64,000 nt of DNA. Source: an uncultured virus (IMG/VR IMGVR_UViG_3300029911_000018) (taxonomy: Duplodnaviria; Heunggongvirae; Uroviricota; Caudoviricetes). Made by a program: the position numbers and the translations under genes. The DNA lies in the IMG/VR virus record IMGVR_UViG_3300029911_000018; one strand, written 5' to 3'. Positions 3,177 through 44,940 of this stretch are shown here, piece by piece. Position 1 is the first letter of the stretch. Each line of letters starts with the position of its first letter. The notes under the pieces were generated by a model. The model made no database searches. It was not told the DNA's origin and saw only the letters and a list, made by a program, of their open reading frames with translations.

Positions 3177-3252
3177 TGGCCCCCATGGTAGGAGTTGAAC
3201 CTACATCCCTCGGCCTCAACATGCCGGTGCTCTACCGTTGAGCTACATCGGG
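3177..3252 (-). tRNA. tRNA-Asn-like (GTT) with 8-nt anticodon loop
   Basis: Canonical D/T arms, G73-CCA, CGGC-ATGTTGAG-GCCG. Confidence 0.6.
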
Positions 3253-8362: not shown

Positions 8363-8698
8363 TTAATACCCTAAATCCTCACCTCTCCAAGCATACAAAT
8401 CATCAATAGCCAACTCATCCAGTCGGCCTATATTCTTGGCTCCGAAGTTTGGGGTTTGGGCATGACAGTTGGGACACAGAAAACGGATGTTATCCGGTTC
8501 ATTGTTCAGCCAGTCGCCATCAATGTGGTCGATTTGAAGAACAATCGGTCGGCCTATCCATTCAGGGTTTTTGTGTAAGGGACATCTAGGATCAGAGCAC
8601 CGATAGGGGACACCTGATTCCAACATAGCCCGTCGCAAGCGAGTCACATGCTCTCGATGTTTCTTGCGATTCCTAACTAGAATCTGGCTCCAGTGCAT
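8363..8698 (-). CDS. HNH endonuclease
   Basis: LQIDHIDGDWLNN...NIRFLCPNCHAQT. Confidence 0.85.
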   Translation of the reverse strand: MHWSQILVRNRKKHREHVTRLRRAMLESGVPYRCSDPRCPLHKNPEWIGRPIVLQIDHIDGDWLNNEPDNIRFLCPNCHAQTPNFGAKNIGRLDELAIDDLYAWRGEDLGY

Positions 8699-9343: not shown

Positions 9344-9574
9344 CTATCGCTCCGTACGCTGCGTCTTCGGAAGGTCGAGACCCCAGCCACGCTGGATATT
9401 CTCGGAGTCCTGACGCATGTACACAGCCGCAACTTTCCATTCACCACTCTCGGGCTCATCCTTCAGGGTGATAACAGAGCCGCGCTTCACACCTCGGTTA
9501 GCGGGAACCCACGCCACCTTACAGTGAATACCGCGTTCTGACTCTTGCTGCAACATTGTTTGAACTAATTCCAT
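9344..9574 (-). CDS. hypothetical protein
   Basis: 76-aa ORF (MELVQ..) between tRNAs. Confidence 0.55.
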   Translation of the reverse strand: MELVQTMLQQESERGIHCKVAWVPANRGVKRGSVITLKDEPESGEWKVAAVYMRQDSENIQRGWGLDLPKTQRTER

Positions 9575-9591
9575 TTCTTTCTCTTTCTTTA

Positions 9592-9679
9592 TGGTGCCCG
9601 GAGAGGGATTCGAACCCCCACGAGAATTAACCCACTGGCTTCTAAGACCAGCGCGTCTCGCCAATTTCGCCATCCGGGC
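9592..9679 (-). tRNA. tRNA-Leu(TAG)
   Basis: CTGGT-CTTAGAA-GCCAG. Confidence 0.92.
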
Positions 9680-9684
9680 ACATC

Positions 9685-10323
9685 TTAAATTCGACCCCTT
9701 CTCCATCCAATCAAAACGTAAGAGGTCAAATCGTTTTGCTTAATCTTGATGGCTCTTTCACCGTCCGTTACCCAACGAGTACCGAACTGTGAATTCTTAT
9801 CCCCCGCTCTATTCACCAATGCCATCTTTGCTTTGGTGTCCGCCCTGTGCTTCCGACCAGTCCAAGTGCGTTTACTCGCCGCTGAAATCTTAGCTGACAC
9901 ATCCGGTTCAACACCATGTTCCCTAATCTGGTTGGCCCGAGCCTCACTCATCATCTTGTAATGCTGTGGGTCTCGATGACTCTGAGAACTGTGTGACACT
10001 CTGGCGGCATTGGCGTAGTCGGCCAACCCTTCTCGATTGATATAGTCAAACCCACCAGAGCCCCCTTTTCTCAAATTCATACAGAGAGGGTTACCCCGCC
10101 AACATTGAATCAACTCATCCTCTTTGCCAAATGCTGATTCAACATCGAGGTAGATGAACAGGACTTCCTTATGGAAGTTTTGTTCCCCATATTTTGCAAC
10201 GGCTCGTTTGATGTATGTACCGGAACCGAGGTACGCATCATCAGGGTCTTTCGTTTTGTGAACCCCGAAGTAGAACTTGCCGTTGAGCAGGTTGACGGTT
10301 TTGTAAACCGTGTAGTATGTCAT
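9685..10323 (-). CDS. GIY-YIG (Seg-like) homing endonuclease with NUMOD3
   Basis: VYKTVNLLNGKFYFGVH..YLGSG..KYGEQNF.KE..MNL..GG.GG. Confidence 0.9.
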   Translation of the reverse strand: MTYYTVYKTVNLLNGKFYFGVHKTKDPDDAYLGSGTYIKRAVAKYGEQNFHKEVLFIYLDVESAFGKEDELIQCWRGNPLCMNLRKGGSGGFDYINREGLADYANAARVSHSSQSHRDPQHYKMMSEARANQIREHGVEPDVSAKISAASKRTWTGRKHRADTKAKMALVNRAGDKNSQFGTRWVTDGERAIKIKQNDLTSYVLIGWRRGRI

Positions 10324-10368: not shown

Positions 10369-10453
10369 TGCATGGAGTAGGATTTGAACCTACGTAGCCC
10401 CAAGGGGCGGGTGTTTTACAGACACCTAGTTTTAACCACTCACTCATCCATGC
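10369..10453 (-). tRNA. tRNA-Tyr(GTA), no encoded CCA
   Basis: GGTGT-CTGTAAA-ACACC, long variable arm. Confidence 0.9.
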
Positions 10454-11012: not shown

Positions 11013-11756
11013 ATGCCAAATCCAAATGTGAAACTCGGTCGCAAAGCCGTTAAGACCGACTCAAGAACTTTGAAGCTTTCCCCTTATATGAAGATGTTAC
11101 CCCCGCCCCCGGCCTCTGTGGACTGGACGAAGGGGAACACCTCGTGGGGGATGATGCTGAATGACACCCTTGGTTGCTGCACCATTGCCGGAGCCGCGCA
11201 CGCTATTCAAGTGTGGAGCACTGAAACCGGCAGTGAAGTTACCGTACCTGATTCTACTGTACTTCAATATTATGAGCAGTGGGATGGGTATGTAAACGGC
11301 AACCCGTCAACCGACAACGGGGGTGTCGAACTCGATGTTCTCAATAAATGGAAGTCACAGGGGCTCCTCGGTCACAAGTTAGTGGCCTTTGCTGATCCAC
11401 AGGTTCGCAACCACACAGAGATTATGCAAGCAATCAACCTCTTCGGTGGTGTTTACATCGGGATGCAAGTTCCCAACTACATCATCAACAACATCCCGGC
11501 TCTGTGGCAGATTGCGACCGCAGGACAGGACACTGGCATTGATGGTGGGCACTGTGTGTTTGTCTGTGGTTATGATGCAGTGGGGGTATCCTTCATCTCG
11601 TGGGGACAGGTCTACAAGATGACATGGGCCTACTGGGATGTGTATGTGGATGAGGCACACGCCCTACTCTCGCAGGACTGGATAAACTCCAAGGGAGTTG
11701 ATGTCCAAGGCTTCGACCTTGCACAACTGCAAACTGACTTATCTCAAATCAGCTAA
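11013..11756 (+). CDS. papain-like (C1) cysteine peptidase
   Basis: PASVDW..LGCCTIA..GGHCVFVCGYD..SWG; AGGAGG RBS. Confidence 0.85.
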   Translation: MPNPNVKLGRKAVKTDSRTLKLSPYMKMLPPPPASVDWTKGNTSWGMMLNDTLGCCTIAGAAHAIQVWSTETGSEVTVPDSTVLQYYEQWDGYVNGNPSTDNGGVELDVLNKWKSQGLLGHKLVAFADPQVRNHTEIMQAINLFGGVYIGMQVPNYIINNIPALWQIATAGQDTGIDGGHCVFVCGYDAVGVSFISWGQVYKMTWAYWDVYVDEAHALLSQDWINSKGVDVQGFDLAQLQTDLSQIS

Positions 11757-11757
11757 C

Positions 11758-11785
11758 AAAAAGCCACCCAGTTGGGTGGCTTTTC
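11758..11785. terminator. bidirectional terminator
   Basis: AAAAAGCCACCCA-GT-TGGGTGGCTTTT between convergent genes. Confidence 0.8.
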
Positions 11786-12104
11786 TCTTGCTCTCAAGAG
11801 TAGGGGTTGTGGTGATGCTTGTGGTGGTGCTTGTGATACCATTCGCTGGCATGAATACGACGCCAGAAATCCTCACAGATTTCCGCTGCGTGTTCAGGAT
11901 AAGCTTGAACGAATCGTGCCCATGCACGCTCTCTGGCTTCGACACCTTCAGCATCACAAATCCAACCGTAAGCGATGGTCTCCCAATACTGGACATCGTC
12001 TACACCGCTTGGGGTCGCTGGCTGCTTTGAAGCTACCGGCTTTTTCTTTTTACCAAAAATACCCATATGATTATCCATCCTCATATAAGAACTGAGTAAT
12101 CGTT

Positions 12105-39314: not shown

Positions 39315-39390
39315 TGGTGTCGCCGATGGGAATCGAACCCACCATCATCTGATTGAAAGTCAGAGGTCCAGACCGATAGACGGCGGCGAC
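39315..39390 (-). tRNA. tRNA-Glu(TTC)
   Basis: TCTGA-CTTTCAA-TCAGA, CCA. Confidence 0.88.
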
Positions 39391-39444
39391 AAACTTAAAT
39401 CCGGGTGCCTTACGTTGACTCCTCGATACACGAAACTCATAACT

Positions 39445-39559
39445 TGGTGCCGGGGTAGGTATCGAAGCCTACAAACTCACAAAACCCGTTCGCATAAACG
39501 GGCATACTTTGTGATGCCTATGGATGCCTCCAGCGAATCTACCAATTCTTCCACCCGGC
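39445..39559 (-). ncRNA. tRNA-Leu-like RNA with no normal anticodon and a giant variable arm
   Basis: GCCGGG/CCCGGC-A-CCA, GAATTGGTAGA D loop, ~40-nt extra hairpin. Confidence 0.65.
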
Positions 39560-39565
39560 GTAGCT

Positions 39566-39641
39566 TGGTGCCCTCGGTAGGAATCGAACCTACGACTTCT
39601 TCCGTGTGAAGGAAGCACTCGTACCGCTGAGTTACGAGGGC
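39566..39641 (-). tRNA. tRNA-Val(CAC)
   Basis: CTTCC-TTCACAC-GGAAG. Confidence 0.92.
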
Positions 39642-39650
39642 GAAACTTAT

Positions 39651-39835
39651 TCTCAAGGAGGGGCATCGAACCCCCATCTCCGCCACGAACGGGCGGTGTC
39701 CTTACCGCTTGTCACTCCGACATCAGAGGCTATTACTAGCTTGGTGCTGACGGAACCCAGTTACATGCTGCTCAGTATATCGACAGCGGAGCAACATTTA
39801 CCCGTCATTGCTCTGCCATGTTAGACGACCTTGAA
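39651..39835 (-). tRNA. tRNA-Glu(TTC)-like gene interrupted by a ~110-nt insertion in the D loop
   Basis: TTCAAGG/CCTTGAG acceptor; GTCT..GGAC D stem; CCGCC-CGTTCGT-GGCGG. Confidence 0.65.
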
Positions 39836-39838
39836 ACT

Positions 39839-39913
39839 TGGTAGCCCTAGAGGGAGTCGAACCCTCATTCTCACCTTGAAAGGGTGCCTTCCTAGCCGTT
39901 AGAAGATAGGGCC
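39839..39913 (-). tRNA. tRNA-Glu(TTC)
   Basis: CACC-CTTTCAA-GGTG. Confidence 0.9.
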
Positions 39914-40519: not shown

Positions 40520-40827
40520 AAACTGGAGCCGAGGGGGCGTGGTTATCCGCCACGGGATTTCCCTTACTCGGCATAAACTCGATTAACTGCGTCCGTCTTC
40601 ACTTTACTAGCCACCCGCCAAGGTCATGGTTGGGGAAGCAACTTTCGCTAGAGCTATCTTGGTGACCCCTACTCTTCCTTTCGGTACCATGGGTATGGGT
40701 CAGAGCCCATAAATCACCGCAGCCTTCACAGCGTGACAAAGCGACTTGCCACTTACGCACTAAGATACACCGTGTTCTGTAATCACACTATGCACTGTGA
40801 AACTTGGTGGATGTGACAGGAGTCGAG

Positions 40828-41040
40828 CTACACACCCAAAACCTCTTCTACCGCTTCATCAACGGTGGCGATGGCAATCACTTTGCCAGTTTCTGTCGTT
40901 CTCGGCCACCGTAGTTTACCTATGCATTCATCACCCTTATACACGCAGATACTGTACTTCCCGCTTCTCTCACCATCGTTCTCACATAGTGATAAAGTCG
41001 GGTCTTTCGAAATTGCAATTACTGCGTCAATAAAAGTCAT
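40828..41040 (-). CDS. hypothetical protein
   Basis: ATGA-coupled small ORF inside the tRNA array. Confidence 0.55.
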   Translation of the reverse strand: MTFIDAVIAISKDPTLSLCENDGERSGKYSICVYKGDECIGKLRWPRTTETGKVIAIATVDEAVEEVLGV

Positions 41041-41402: not shown

Positions 41403-41506
41403 TGCAACAGGTGGGATTCGAACCCACGGCGTCCATAACAATCCGCCAGCGATATAGGCCCTTAACCATGAGACGTGGAATGCTCTACCAACTGAGCTAC
41501 CATTGC
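41403..41506 (-). ncRNA. tRNA with ~40-nt anticodon-loop region (intron-like insertion)
   Basis: Perfect D arm TAGCTCAGTTGGTAGAGC and T arm GTGGGTTCGAATCCCAC. Confidence 0.7.
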
Positions 41507-41606
41507 ACAAACTTGGTGGACGCAGGGGACTTGGCACCCCATCGCTCGGCGTTACCACTATGGACGCCCACATTTCAATTCCTTAAGCCGAGTTCCGGAC
41601 TTAACT

Positions 41607-41769: not shown

Positions 41770-41837
41770 TAGACACGGAGAGATTCGAACTCTCATTTCC
41801 CCTCGATAGGGGCGTCCTACCATTAGACGACGAGCCT
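41770..41837 (-). pseudogene. degenerate tRNA (Glu-like body, 6-nt loop)
   Basis: TCGTCTAATGGTAGGAC D arm; CCCC-TATCGA-GGGG; normal T arm. Confidence 0.55.
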
Positions 41838-42445
41838 CAGCCCGACAAACCCTTAACCCAAACACTTACCGAACTCTTTGCAACCCCGAGTAAAGCTGCG
41901 ATTTGGGCTTTACAAATTCCTTGTTCAAACAACTCCTGCGCTTTCATTCGTTCAACCGCTTTTATATTTCTCAACCTTGCGGCGGCGGAGCCTATCGCTG
42001 ATAATCCTCTTTGCTTTGCCATCTCCGATGACCCACGAGCGCCACTACGATTGAAATTGTTGCGAATCATATCCCGATAGTTAGCGTCTGTCTTCCAACG
42101 CTCCGCGCTGTTAGTCCTATTGGCCGCTCGAACCCTCCACCCTTGGTTGGGTTGCTGATTTATCCAGTCGAAGCCACCACTCCCACCTTGTCTCAGGTTG
42201 TAGCACAAAGGGTCGGCTCGATACGTTTCAATCAGTTCGTATTCTTTAGCAAATGCCTCCCCTGAGTTGTCGAAGATGAAGCACACGTTCTTTATGAACG
42301 ACTGCTCACCGTGCTTACGAATCGCCGCCTTCAGAACCTTACCTGACCCAAGGTACCCGTCGTACGGGTTCTTGGTTTTGTGGACGCCGAAGTAATACTT
42401 TCCGTTCACCAAATTCTGTGTTCGATACACTGTGTAAAATATCAT
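41837..42445 (-). CDS. GIY-YIG (Seg-like) homing endonuclease, C-terminal HTH
   Basis: Nuclease domain paralogous to 9685-10323; AQIAALLGVAKSSVSVW. Confidence 0.9.
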   Translation of the reverse strand: MIFYTVYRTQNLVNGKYYFGVHKTKNPYDGYLGSGKVLKAAIRKHGEQSFIKNVCFIFDNSGEAFAKEYELIETYRADPLCYNLRQGGSGGFDWINQQPNQGWRVRAANRTNSAERWKTDANYRDMIRNNFNRSGARGSSEMAKQRGLSAIGSAAARLRNIKAVERMKAQELFEQGICKAQIAALLGVAKSSVSVWVKGLSG

Positions 42446-42511: not shown

Positions 42512-42584
42512 TGCGCCTTGTAGGAATCGAACCTACGGTCCCTTCCATGTCAAGGAAGTGCTCTAGCCGCTGAGCCAAAGGCGC
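42512..42584 (-). tRNA. tRNA-Val(GAC), no encoded CCA
   Basis: CTTCC-TTGACAT-GGAAG. Confidence 0.9.
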
Positions 42585-43802: not shown

Positions 43803-43887
43803 ATCTCCTCAATTTCTCGACGCCTCTCCGCCGTGCCACACCACTTTAGTCCGCAGGACTCGGTAGGTGTCACCCCGCTTAAAACTC

Positions 43888-44283
43888 TGCACTAGACTTA
43901 TAGCCGGAGTTCTGTCCAGAGGGTTACCCCTCCTGTACAATCATTCGTCTCGGCCAGCCGTTACCGTCTGGCTCTAGCCCCCAACCCGCCGATTCATAAC
44001 GGTACGAGCAGTACCTGTCGGCCTATTTGAGGTTGCACCGCGTAGAGATTGCCCGTTTCACCCGAATTTAATCGGCTCGTCTCTGTTGCTCTAATCGTCA
44101 CACTCAACATCGGACGGGTTGTTCCCATAGGGTTGGTGGAAATCAACCAGACGTATAGCTGCGTCCCCTTACGCTACGTCCCCGAACAAGTGTGCTAGGG
44201 TGTTACCCTATACGCTGCTCTGTGGTGCTCCGAACTTCCTCGAAGTGGTATTGCGCCACGTCGCGATTGTCCAGTCTAGTGCA
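43888..44283 (-). ncRNA. rnpB: RNase P RNA
   Basis: P1 TGCACTAGACT/AGTCTAGTGCA; P4 halves GAGGAAGTTCGGAGC and ACAGAACTCCGGCTATA; GCAACAGA, GGGTGAAACGG, GGTAAC loop. Confidence 0.92.
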
Positions 44284-44310: not shown

Positions 44311-44655
44311 TTACTGTACTGCCGACGTGCGCTGTACTGCCACGCTACGAAGGTAAGCACGCATCTCGTCCGAGAACTCATTGAACATCTCACCCTTATC
44401 CAACCAGTGCAAAATGGTCTCCCAGTTCTCTTCCTCAGGCGTCCACTGACCCTCCAAGCCGTAGCAAGAGCAGTGACCGCCACTTACTGAGAACAGCTTC
44501 CCGTCCTTCTCGAACAGAACGAATGCCGAACCCGAATAGTCCTCGTAGCTATACACCGCTGCGTAGACCAACGCATCCTTCAATTCATCCTGACCAATAT
44601 TGAACTGGTCGCATACATCCTCAACGCTGCCGAACCTATCTACAAATACTTCCAT
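44311..44655 (-). CDS. conserved phage hypothetical protein
   Basis: Y..EDYSG.A.VLF..DGKL..V.G.HCSCYGLEGQW. Confidence 0.7.
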   Translation of the reverse strand: MEVFVDRFGSVEDVCDQFNIGQDELKDALVYAAVYSYEDYSGSAFVLFEKDGKLFSVSGGHCSCYGLEGQWTPEEENWETILHWLDKGEMFNEFSDEMRAYLRSVAVQRTSAVQ

Positions 44656-44724
44656 CGTTTTCTCCTTGTGGTACAAACCATCGAGAGAAACGGTGAGGTA
44701 ATTGTTCGACCTCGGTTTCAAATT

Positions 44725-44803
44725 TGGTGGACCGTCAGAGATTTGAACTCTGCTGATATTCTGTGTGCAAGACAGATAAACACTCCTAGCATTTCCACGG
44801 CCC
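44725..44803 (-). tRNA. tRNA-Ala(TGC)
   Basis: TCTGT-CTTGCAC-ACAGA, G3:U70. Confidence 0.85.
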
Positions 44804-44940
44804 AATATTGTCAAACATCATGTAATCACCGGCTGGCCGGGATTAAAAATCTTGGTGGCTTTGGCTCACGCCGGGGCACCACCCGCGCCCCTCGAAGTAA
44901 ACTTACCCAGTCTTGTGGACTGGAGTCTTGCTCCAGAGCT

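Follow-up and report, generated by a model that had tools for sequence, protein, structure and literature searches.

The subject of this study is a tRNA gene with an interrupted D loop, carried by a 64,000-nt stretch of DNA (the window) from an uncultured virus of the Caudoviricetes, IMG/VR record IMGVR_UViG_3300029911_000018. The gene is a tRNA-Glu gene at 39651-39835 on the minus strand, and it is split by an insert of 112-113 nt. The source of the window is a large phage of peat metagenomes. In our preferred reading, for which we regard the chances as about even, the split gene is a redundant, lineage-specific paralogue of the tRNA-Glu(UUC) type whose D loop received an insertion and which has lost its decoding role. 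It is regarded as a spare, non-decoding copy because it has G at position 33, lacks an encoded CCA, stands beside two intact tRNA-Glu(UUC) genes, and is absent from relatives.

A tRNA-Glu gene split in the D loop

The original prediction had described a tRNA-Glu gene split by a D-loop insertion at these coordinates and on this strand. That description holds, as the two pieces form a full cloverleaf, most in silico excisions of the insert yield a recognized tRNA, and a chance origin has low probability. The acceptor stem pairs TTCAAGG (39835-39829) with CCTTGAG (39658-39652) in 7/7 positions, including U1.G72, and the discriminator base A73 is 39651. GTCT (39826-39823) pairs with GGAC (39701-39698) in the D stem. 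The anticodon arm has a CCGCC/GGCGG stem and a 7-nt loop, CGTTCGT, with anticodon TTC. A 4-nt variable region leads to the T arm, GGGGG-TTCGATG-CCCCT. Comparison with the D loops of the phage's three other Glu genes places the insert between D-loop positions 15 and 16. Its boundary can slide by up to 2 nt, AA being present at both edges. The features of the gene and its surroundings are listed in the table.

Table. Positions of the split tRNA-Glu gene, its insert, and selected array genes in the window.
Feature	Position	Strand	Remarks
5' piece of split gene	39821..39835	-	acceptor 5' strand TTCAAGG, U8 C9, D-stem 5' strand GTCT, A14 A15
3' piece of split gene	39651..39708	-	rest of D loop with G18 G19, D-stem 3' strand GGAC, A26, anticodon arm, 4-nt variable region, T arm, acceptor 3' strand, A73
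Insert	39709..39820	-	112 nt, or 113 nt if G39708 is counted
Inner long hairpin plus ACCA	39742..39811	-	GC, AA bulge, TGACGGG pairing TTCCGTCA, GC; in the constrained optimum and the fold of the inner part
Small hairpin GCTA-GTAA-TAGC	39729..39740	-	GNRA-type tetraloop; in all folds
Hairpin CTCTG-ATGT-CGGAG	39715..39728	-	in whole-element and constrained folds
Intact tRNA-Glu(UUC), encoded CCA	39839..39913	-	directly upstream; ARAGORN; Rfam 53.9 bits
Intact tRNA-Val(CAC), encoded CCA	39566..39641	-	9 nt downstream; ARAGORN, Rfam; 97.5% identical to tRNA-Val of relative L048
Second intact tRNA-Glu(UUC), encoded CCA	39315..39390	-	ARAGORN, Rfam
Aberrant tRNA-like gene, 4-nt anticodon loop	41770-41837	-	good acceptor, D and T arms; no CCA
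Aberrant tRNA-like gene, ~33 extra nt in anticodon arm	41403-41506	-	good acceptor, D and T arms; no CCA
Aberrant tRNA-like gene, 13 extra nt in anticodon loop	40436-40519	-	good acceptor, D and T arms; no CCA
Homing-endonuclease genes within tRNA arrays	41837-42445, 9685-10323, 8363-8698	-	PHROG 314 (E 3e-30, 5e-37), HNH PHROG 10822 (2e-25)

In its genomic form the gene received no ARAGORN call and no Rfam match, either at the gathering score or at E ≤ 1. The best contiguous alignment to the Rfam tRNA model (RF00005) scored 15.6 bits, where the threshold is 29, and it breaks both the acceptor and the D stem. Standard tRNA finders thus overlook interrupted copies of this kind. When the insert was excised in silico, ARAGORN called tRNA-Glu(ttc) in 45/56 combinations of boundaries.

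A chance arrangement was also considered, in which a 5'-truncated tRNA fragment, for example the remnant of an attachment site, happens to lie downstream of a matching sequence. Acceptor matches of 7 nt that tolerate GU pairs are indeed common by themselves, and a second TTCAAGG occurs at 39880. However, 125/20,000 shuffles had a 5' half that fits the acceptor and D stems at once in the 400 nt upstream, and 13/20,000 did so when U8 and A14 were also required. The 5' piece begins 3 nt past the CCA of the upstream tRNA-Glu. Nor does the 3' body occur in any of 185,579 species genomes. The odd anticodon arm pattern gave 0 matches in that collection, as did the pattern from the anticodon stem to the T arm (free loop), although the host may lie outside it. 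No donor tRNA was therefore found, and the attachment-site reading is unsupported. A strict scan for split tRNAs over 653,385 bases of the window and its relatives, on both strands, returned the split tRNA-Glu and a single spurious hit, in which upstream sequence matches a normal tRNA-Val of relatives L037/L038. We consider a chance origin very improbable.

The case for a spare copy and the points against it

The features expected of a disrupted or spare gene were found: intact isoacceptors, absence from relative L048 and from a relative in sequencing run X24, and the combination of G33, G37, no CCA and a 112-nt insert. The near-universal U33 is replaced by G in the 7-nt anticodon loop, and A73 is followed by ATA instead of CCA. 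Encoded CCA is present in 28/34 tRNA-type genes tabulated in the window. The six genes without it are two canonical genes and all four aberrant tRNA-like genes, the split tRNA-Glu among them. The split gene is redundant with the two intact tRNA-Glu(UUC) genes.

L048 is the closest relative found and has the same gene order, with 14 blastn segments at 74-98% identity. Its tRNA-Cys gene is followed by one uninterrupted tRNA-Glu(UUC) and then directly by tRNA-Val, and the split gene is absent. In the contig of a relative in run X24, the Val and Cys genes are separated by 81 letters, versus 277 in the window. Compared with six other Glu genes, the exons of the split gene show 56-63% identity to each, and no orthologue is evident.

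Under this reading, the variable D-loop segment would have taken up a 112-113 nt piece of DNA. The split gene would be transcribed with its neighbors in an array precursor; co-transcription is suggested by the spacing of 3 nt and 9 nt to the flanking tRNAs, the shared strand, and the lack of an internal promoter or terminator. Between 39200 and 40400, no promoter or terminator was predicted within the element, and one promoter-like and two terminator-like sites elsewhere in that interval are within shuffle expectation. The ends of the gene would probably still be cut like tRNA ends since the acceptor and T arms are intact, and the product would then either remain at ~185 nt or be cut into pieces. 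The insertion itself would be a DNA-level accident in a constantly rearranged array rather than a self-removing RNA element. It could plausibly have come about through breaks introduced by the array's own homing endonucleases.

The body of the split gene, judged from its sequence, is of the tRNA-Glu(UUC) type. According to the available part of PMC9976931, E. coli tRNA-Glu identity depends on U34 U35 C36 A37, U11-A24, U13-G22 with A46, and the absence of position 47, while G1-C72 and U2-A71 are weak identity pairs. The split gene has U34 U35 C36 and U2-A71. It lacks A37, which is replaced by G, and G1-C72, which is replaced by U1.G72.

Several observations weigh against a spare copy that is simply decaying. 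With 112-113 nt skipped, 21/21 cloverleaf pairs (7, 4, 5 and 5) form. The conserved tertiary positions of tRNA comprise U8, A14, R15-Y48, G18 G19, T54 T55 C56, A58 and G53-C61. All of these contact bases are kept, A15 being matched with U48, and so are the glutamate body determinants U11-A24 and U13-G22 with A46, position 47 being missing. The insert occupies a D-loop segment of naturally variable length, at which the L-shaped fold could survive. Such order at ~60% identity exceeds what free decay predicts, unless import and insertion were both recent. Within the insert, the inner long hairpin (39811-39746) runs straight into ACCA (39745-39742) and then AGCT, and ACCA-AGCT is the type of ending found on the canonical tRNA genes of the array. 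This ending looks more like a processing signal than random DNA, though it was noticed post hoc. The phage also has its own RNase P RNA. It is full length and of type A, at 43885-44282 on the minus strand (RF00010, 162.5 bits versus a gathering score of 100, model positions 1-367), and it lies in the tRNA array between tRNA-Ala(tgc) and tRNA-Gly(tcc). The spare-copy reading is favored, in turn, by a 157-nt contig of RNA-library run X23 that is identical to 39746-39902 and extends from the upstream tRNA-Glu into the insert with the 5' junction unspliced, though it may derive from library DNA. Its end at 39746 coincides with the final paired position of the inner hairpin, which is suggestive only. 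No joined form was seen in either of the two RNA runs, which counts neither way: contigs cannot reliably show RNA ends or splice products, and the RNA cover of the stretch is incomplete.

The points against simple decay favor a different reading, one that we hold to be unlikely but worth serious attention, in which the gene encodes a functional, unspliced tRNA-like RNA. Here the tRNA-Glu body would be a stabilizing chassis that is recognized by RNase P, and perhaps by other tRNA-binding proteins too, and the insert would be a module carried in the D loop. In one version, RNase P and 3' trimming free the ACCA-ended hairpin, and the two tRNA pieces stay joined by the acceptor and D stems. In a second version, the whole RNA is a decoy for host defence nucleases that target tRNAs. 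The retained stems, tertiary bases and body determinants fit such a chassis, as do the length-variable insertion site, the tRNA-like ending of the inner hairpin, the end of the X23 contig at 39746 and the RNase P RNA of the phage. Other CCA-ending units that are not tRNAs occur in the arrays, such as 40837-40805 and 39560-39445 in the window and 9517-9604 in relative L038. The T4 tRNA cluster precursor also yields the non-tRNA species I and II, as described in the accessible part of PMC2330249. Against the chassis, the element is a singleton with zero conservation, its fold is no more stable than shuffled sequence, and its pairings compete. An 11-nt identity between the insert and the end of tRNA-Val is at shuffle level (score 22 versus a null median of 22). 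The ACCA feature was spotted after the fact, and a lone contig end in one run is a weak hint at most.

The narrower claim that the insert is a working module, with the phage RNase P RNA and 3' trimming releasing a CCA-tailed small RNA and leaving behind a two-piece tRNA-like RNA, seems to us improbable. If true, it would be the first D-loop-embedded RNA released by RNase P, or the first natural split tRNA, in a bacterial virus.

Folding, splicing and homology of the insert

The original prediction had called the insert structured and had drawn four nested helices in it. All four can be drawn, but the term "structured" lacks statistical support and other pairings compete with them. The insert alone folds with a z of -0.35, and 74/200 shuffles were at least as stable. 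For the whole element, z was -1.44 and 18/200 shuffles were at least as stable. The optimum constrained to the cloverleaf has three hairpins in a row at -62.5 kcal/mol. The cloverleaf combined with the four predicted helices gives -47.2 kcal/mol, and the unconstrained optimum is -64.7 kcal/mol. As an example of competing pairings, CTCTG pairs with CAGAG (39815-39811) when the insert is folded alone, which excludes the hairpin CTCTG-ATGT-CGGAG.

The insert might instead be a new small intervening sequence whose removal, by self-cleavage or by proteins followed by ligation, gives a working tRNA-Glu. We doubt this strongly. Once 112-113 nt are removed, ARAGORN recognizes the restored cloverleaf in most boundary variants, the stems are intact, and protein-spliced introns are known from the D loop in archaea and in a red alga (PMC3241643 and PMC3728597, in the parts available). 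The 206-nt stretch had 6 Rfam matches at E ≤ 10, however, and none was to an intron, self-cleaving ribozyme, riboswitch or tmRNA family, so neither group I nor group II introns nor a known ribozyme family is represented. A scan for bulge-helix-bulge (BHB) motifs found none across the exon-insert junctions. The single strict BHB-like motif lies inside the insert, has weak GU-rich helices, and cuts there would not restore the D loop. No RNA ligase or splicing endonuclease was found by Pfam among 61 window open reading frames (ORFs), a scan limited to the window, which is all but ~98 kb of the 162-kb phage contig. A spliced product would still have G33, G37 and no CCA, and would be redundant with two intact genes.

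The earlier statement that the insert is too short for a group I intron stands, given a total of 112-113 nt. The available text of PMC4033280 indicates that this is about the size of the group I catalytic core alone, and describes bacterial tRNA introns only as group I/II introns at 37/38. None of the three identities that had been proposed for the insert, a novel intron, a small ribozyme or a tRNA-scaffolded RNA domain, gained support. The insert has no Rfam family at E ≤ 10, no junction BHB, no fold above shuffled level and no homologue in the collections searched.

The homology search that had been suggested for the insert found no homologue in the window, relatives, or viral, metagenome, phage and genome collections. 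The insert is unique in the window, where the best other match is 12 nt. Blastn over 44 related loci returned 4 self copies only. A covariance model of the insert with its possible arms, run on 516,120 bases, found only itself, and the next best hit had E 0.97. Exact and gapped patterns (insert free) in IMG/VR matched only a contig 100% identical to the window, and the gapped pattern with free insert in JGI metagenomes matched only the identical 162,146-nt contig. Distant-mode blastn against GenBank phages gave 4 records, each a tRNA-only match. Having no homologue, the insert is unconserved, which is half of what the original prediction had said would tell against it.

Two candidates for the origin of the insert were tried and rejected. 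One was a mosaic derived from the array: the 11-nt identity mentioned above covers the tRNA-Val end and trailer, and its score equals the median best of 100 shuffles. The other was an inner unit that is a decayed tRNA, which requires several indels and is called by no tool.

A related possibility is that the insert is the remnant of a small mobile tRNA-in-tRNA cassette, a hairpin-flanked unit that entered the D loop of a resident gene and whose inner unit has degenerated. We rate this as quite unlikely. Possible bracketing arms, ACAT-GG-CAGAG and CTCTGATGT, can be recognized, the target is a D loop, and the inner unit has a tRNA-like ACCA end. On the other hand, neither ARAGORN nor Rfam finds a tRNA in the insert, no second copy of a cassette is present in the window or relatives, the arms are unused in the best cloverleaf-constrained fold, and the working tRNA-Glu copy lies beside the split gene rather than within it.

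A tmRNA has a tRNA-Ala-like acceptor with G3.U70, no anticodon arm, an internal tag reading frame, and a match to RF00023. A tmRNA-like reading of the split gene was rejected: position 3:70 is C-G, an anticodon arm is present, and there is no RF00023 match at the locus. A full tmRNA does occur in the array of relative L038, at 11645-12008 on the plus strand (RF00023, 124 bits; tag AEPLSMYAMA), shortly after Cys and Glu(UUC) genes, the same two that the interrupted tRNA-Glu follows in the window.

The phage tRNA arrays and comparison with known systems

An IMG/VR contig is 100% identical to the window over 6,028 bases, and the JGI contig of 162,146 nt is 100% identical across 2,537 bases. All or part of the stretch is present in 22 DNA runs labelled peat metagenome, and small shares of it are present in 2 RNA runs (1 peat, 1 wetland). 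The proteins of the window include a RecA-like protein, a DnaB-like helicase, PhoH, ribonucleotide reductase and a lytic transglycosylase. Two long tRNA arrays lie on its minus strand. ARAGORN identified 31 tRNA genes in the window, and Rfam gave 29 tRNA matches plus the type-A RNase P RNA.

Besides the split tRNA-Glu there are at least three aberrant tRNA-like genes. Among the blastn segments, neither the one with 13 extra nt in the anticodon loop nor a 116-nt unit at 39560-39445 has an L048 counterpart. Two canonical genes directly upstream of the PHROG-314 endonuclease genes, Val-gac (42512-42584) and Tyr (10369-10453), lack CCA and share a common trailer, CATTCGTGA, as if the endonuclease cassette inserted right after the discriminator base.

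Structured units that end in CCA and are missed by tRNA finders were seen on the minus strand of the window at 39445-39560, 41514-41600 and 40805-40837. The first is a 116-nt tRNA-like RNA in which a tetraloop replaces the anticodon loop, and the last is a 33-nt acceptor-like minihelix immediately after the stop codon of an ORF. Similar units are found in the L038 array at 9517-9604, 9612-9666, 9668-9749 and 11424-11508 on the plus strand. A scan for CCA-ending hairpins with up to 1 mismatch was too noisy to define a family, and the perfect-stem cases were retained. No Pfam match was obtained for the plus-strand ORFs at 39606-39824 and 39415-39609.

No RNase P RNA match was found in the syntenic relatives L038 and L048, and a literature search limited to a single query did not find a phage-encoded RNase P RNA. 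A 167-aa ORF at 44311-44814 on the minus strand lies next to this RNA in the window and has matches at ~1e-28 to PHROG 8792, of unknown function, and to PHROG 21421, which is labelled integrase. Its 5' end overlaps tRNA-Ala(tgc).

Other members of the phage group's translation repertoire were also observed. A 195-aa short release-factor-like protein, which combines an RF-1 domain with a partial PCRF domain, is encoded at 2052-2639 on the minus strand, beside the first tRNA array. ARAGORN called a tRNA with a 4-base anticodon (gttg) at 3177-3252 on the minus strand. Relative L039 has a CUA-anticodon tRNA at 75-152 (printed as Pyl by ARAGORN) and L048 has a UCA-anticodon tRNA at 2778-2850 (printed as SeC). 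The gttg, CUA and UCA tRNAs are possible frameshift or stop suppressors.

The spare-copy reading can be set against several known systems. Long bacterial tRNA arrays undergo frequent insertions, duplications and deletions and contain some pseudogenes, as reported in the available part of PMC8421152. The trn operon of PCC 7120 described there resembles the present array in being long and co-oriented, in its embedded protein genes and frequent indels, and in a minority of members that go undetected as tRNAs and are taken to be pseudogenes. It differs in that the array here belongs to a phage and the D-loop insertion is 112-113 nt with intact stems; no D-loop insertion was found described in the accessible text of that article. 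In phage T4, SegB is encoded in the tRNA cluster, recognizes a T-loop motif and cuts inside tRNA genes (PMC2330249, available part). As presented there, the cluster makes one precursor that also yields non-tRNA stable RNAs, and the endonuclease drives gene turnover between related phages. The likeness is a phage tRNA cluster with an embedded homing-endonuclease gene. The differences are that the endonucleases here match PHROG 314 and HNH families and are not established SegB relatives, and that no interrupted T4 tRNA gene is reported in the accessible part of the paper.

Bacterial tRNA genes are considered structurally uniform, with group I/II introns at 37/38 as the sole significant exception (PMC4033280, available part). 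The split gene is like a gene with a group I intron in that an intervening sequence lies in a bacterial-type tRNA gene and its removal restores the cloverleaf. Group I introns (RF00028), however, sit at 37/38 of the anticodon loop and have ~10 helices and a core of ~100 nt, as the same source describes, whereas this insert is in the D loop, totals 112-113 nt and matches no family. In archaea and Cyanidioschyzon, too, tRNA genes that are otherwise normal can carry introns at unusual sites, the D arm among them (PMC3241643 and PMC3728597, available parts). Those introns need a BHB and a splicing endonuclease, whereas here there is no junction BHB and no such enzyme in the window. The setting is bacterial, with a type-A RNase P RNA in the window and a tmRNA in L038. 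Keyword searches of an open-access full-text library found no paper on a D-loop-interrupted bacterial or phage tRNA gene, which does not prove absence.

A D-loop-interrupted phage tRNA gene is an unusual object, because bacterial-type tRNA genes are called structurally uniform in the part of PMC4033280 available. If the hairpin were released by RNase P or the RNA were stable, the gene would represent a new way of packaging a small RNA, or a tRNA decoy, in phage biology. As a probable spare, non-decoding copy, the split gene mainly illustrates the fast gain, breakage and loss of genes in large phage tRNA arrays near homing endonucleases. The setting, a phage that encodes an RNase P RNA and numerous RNAs ending in CCA without being tRNAs, may merit more attention than the insert.

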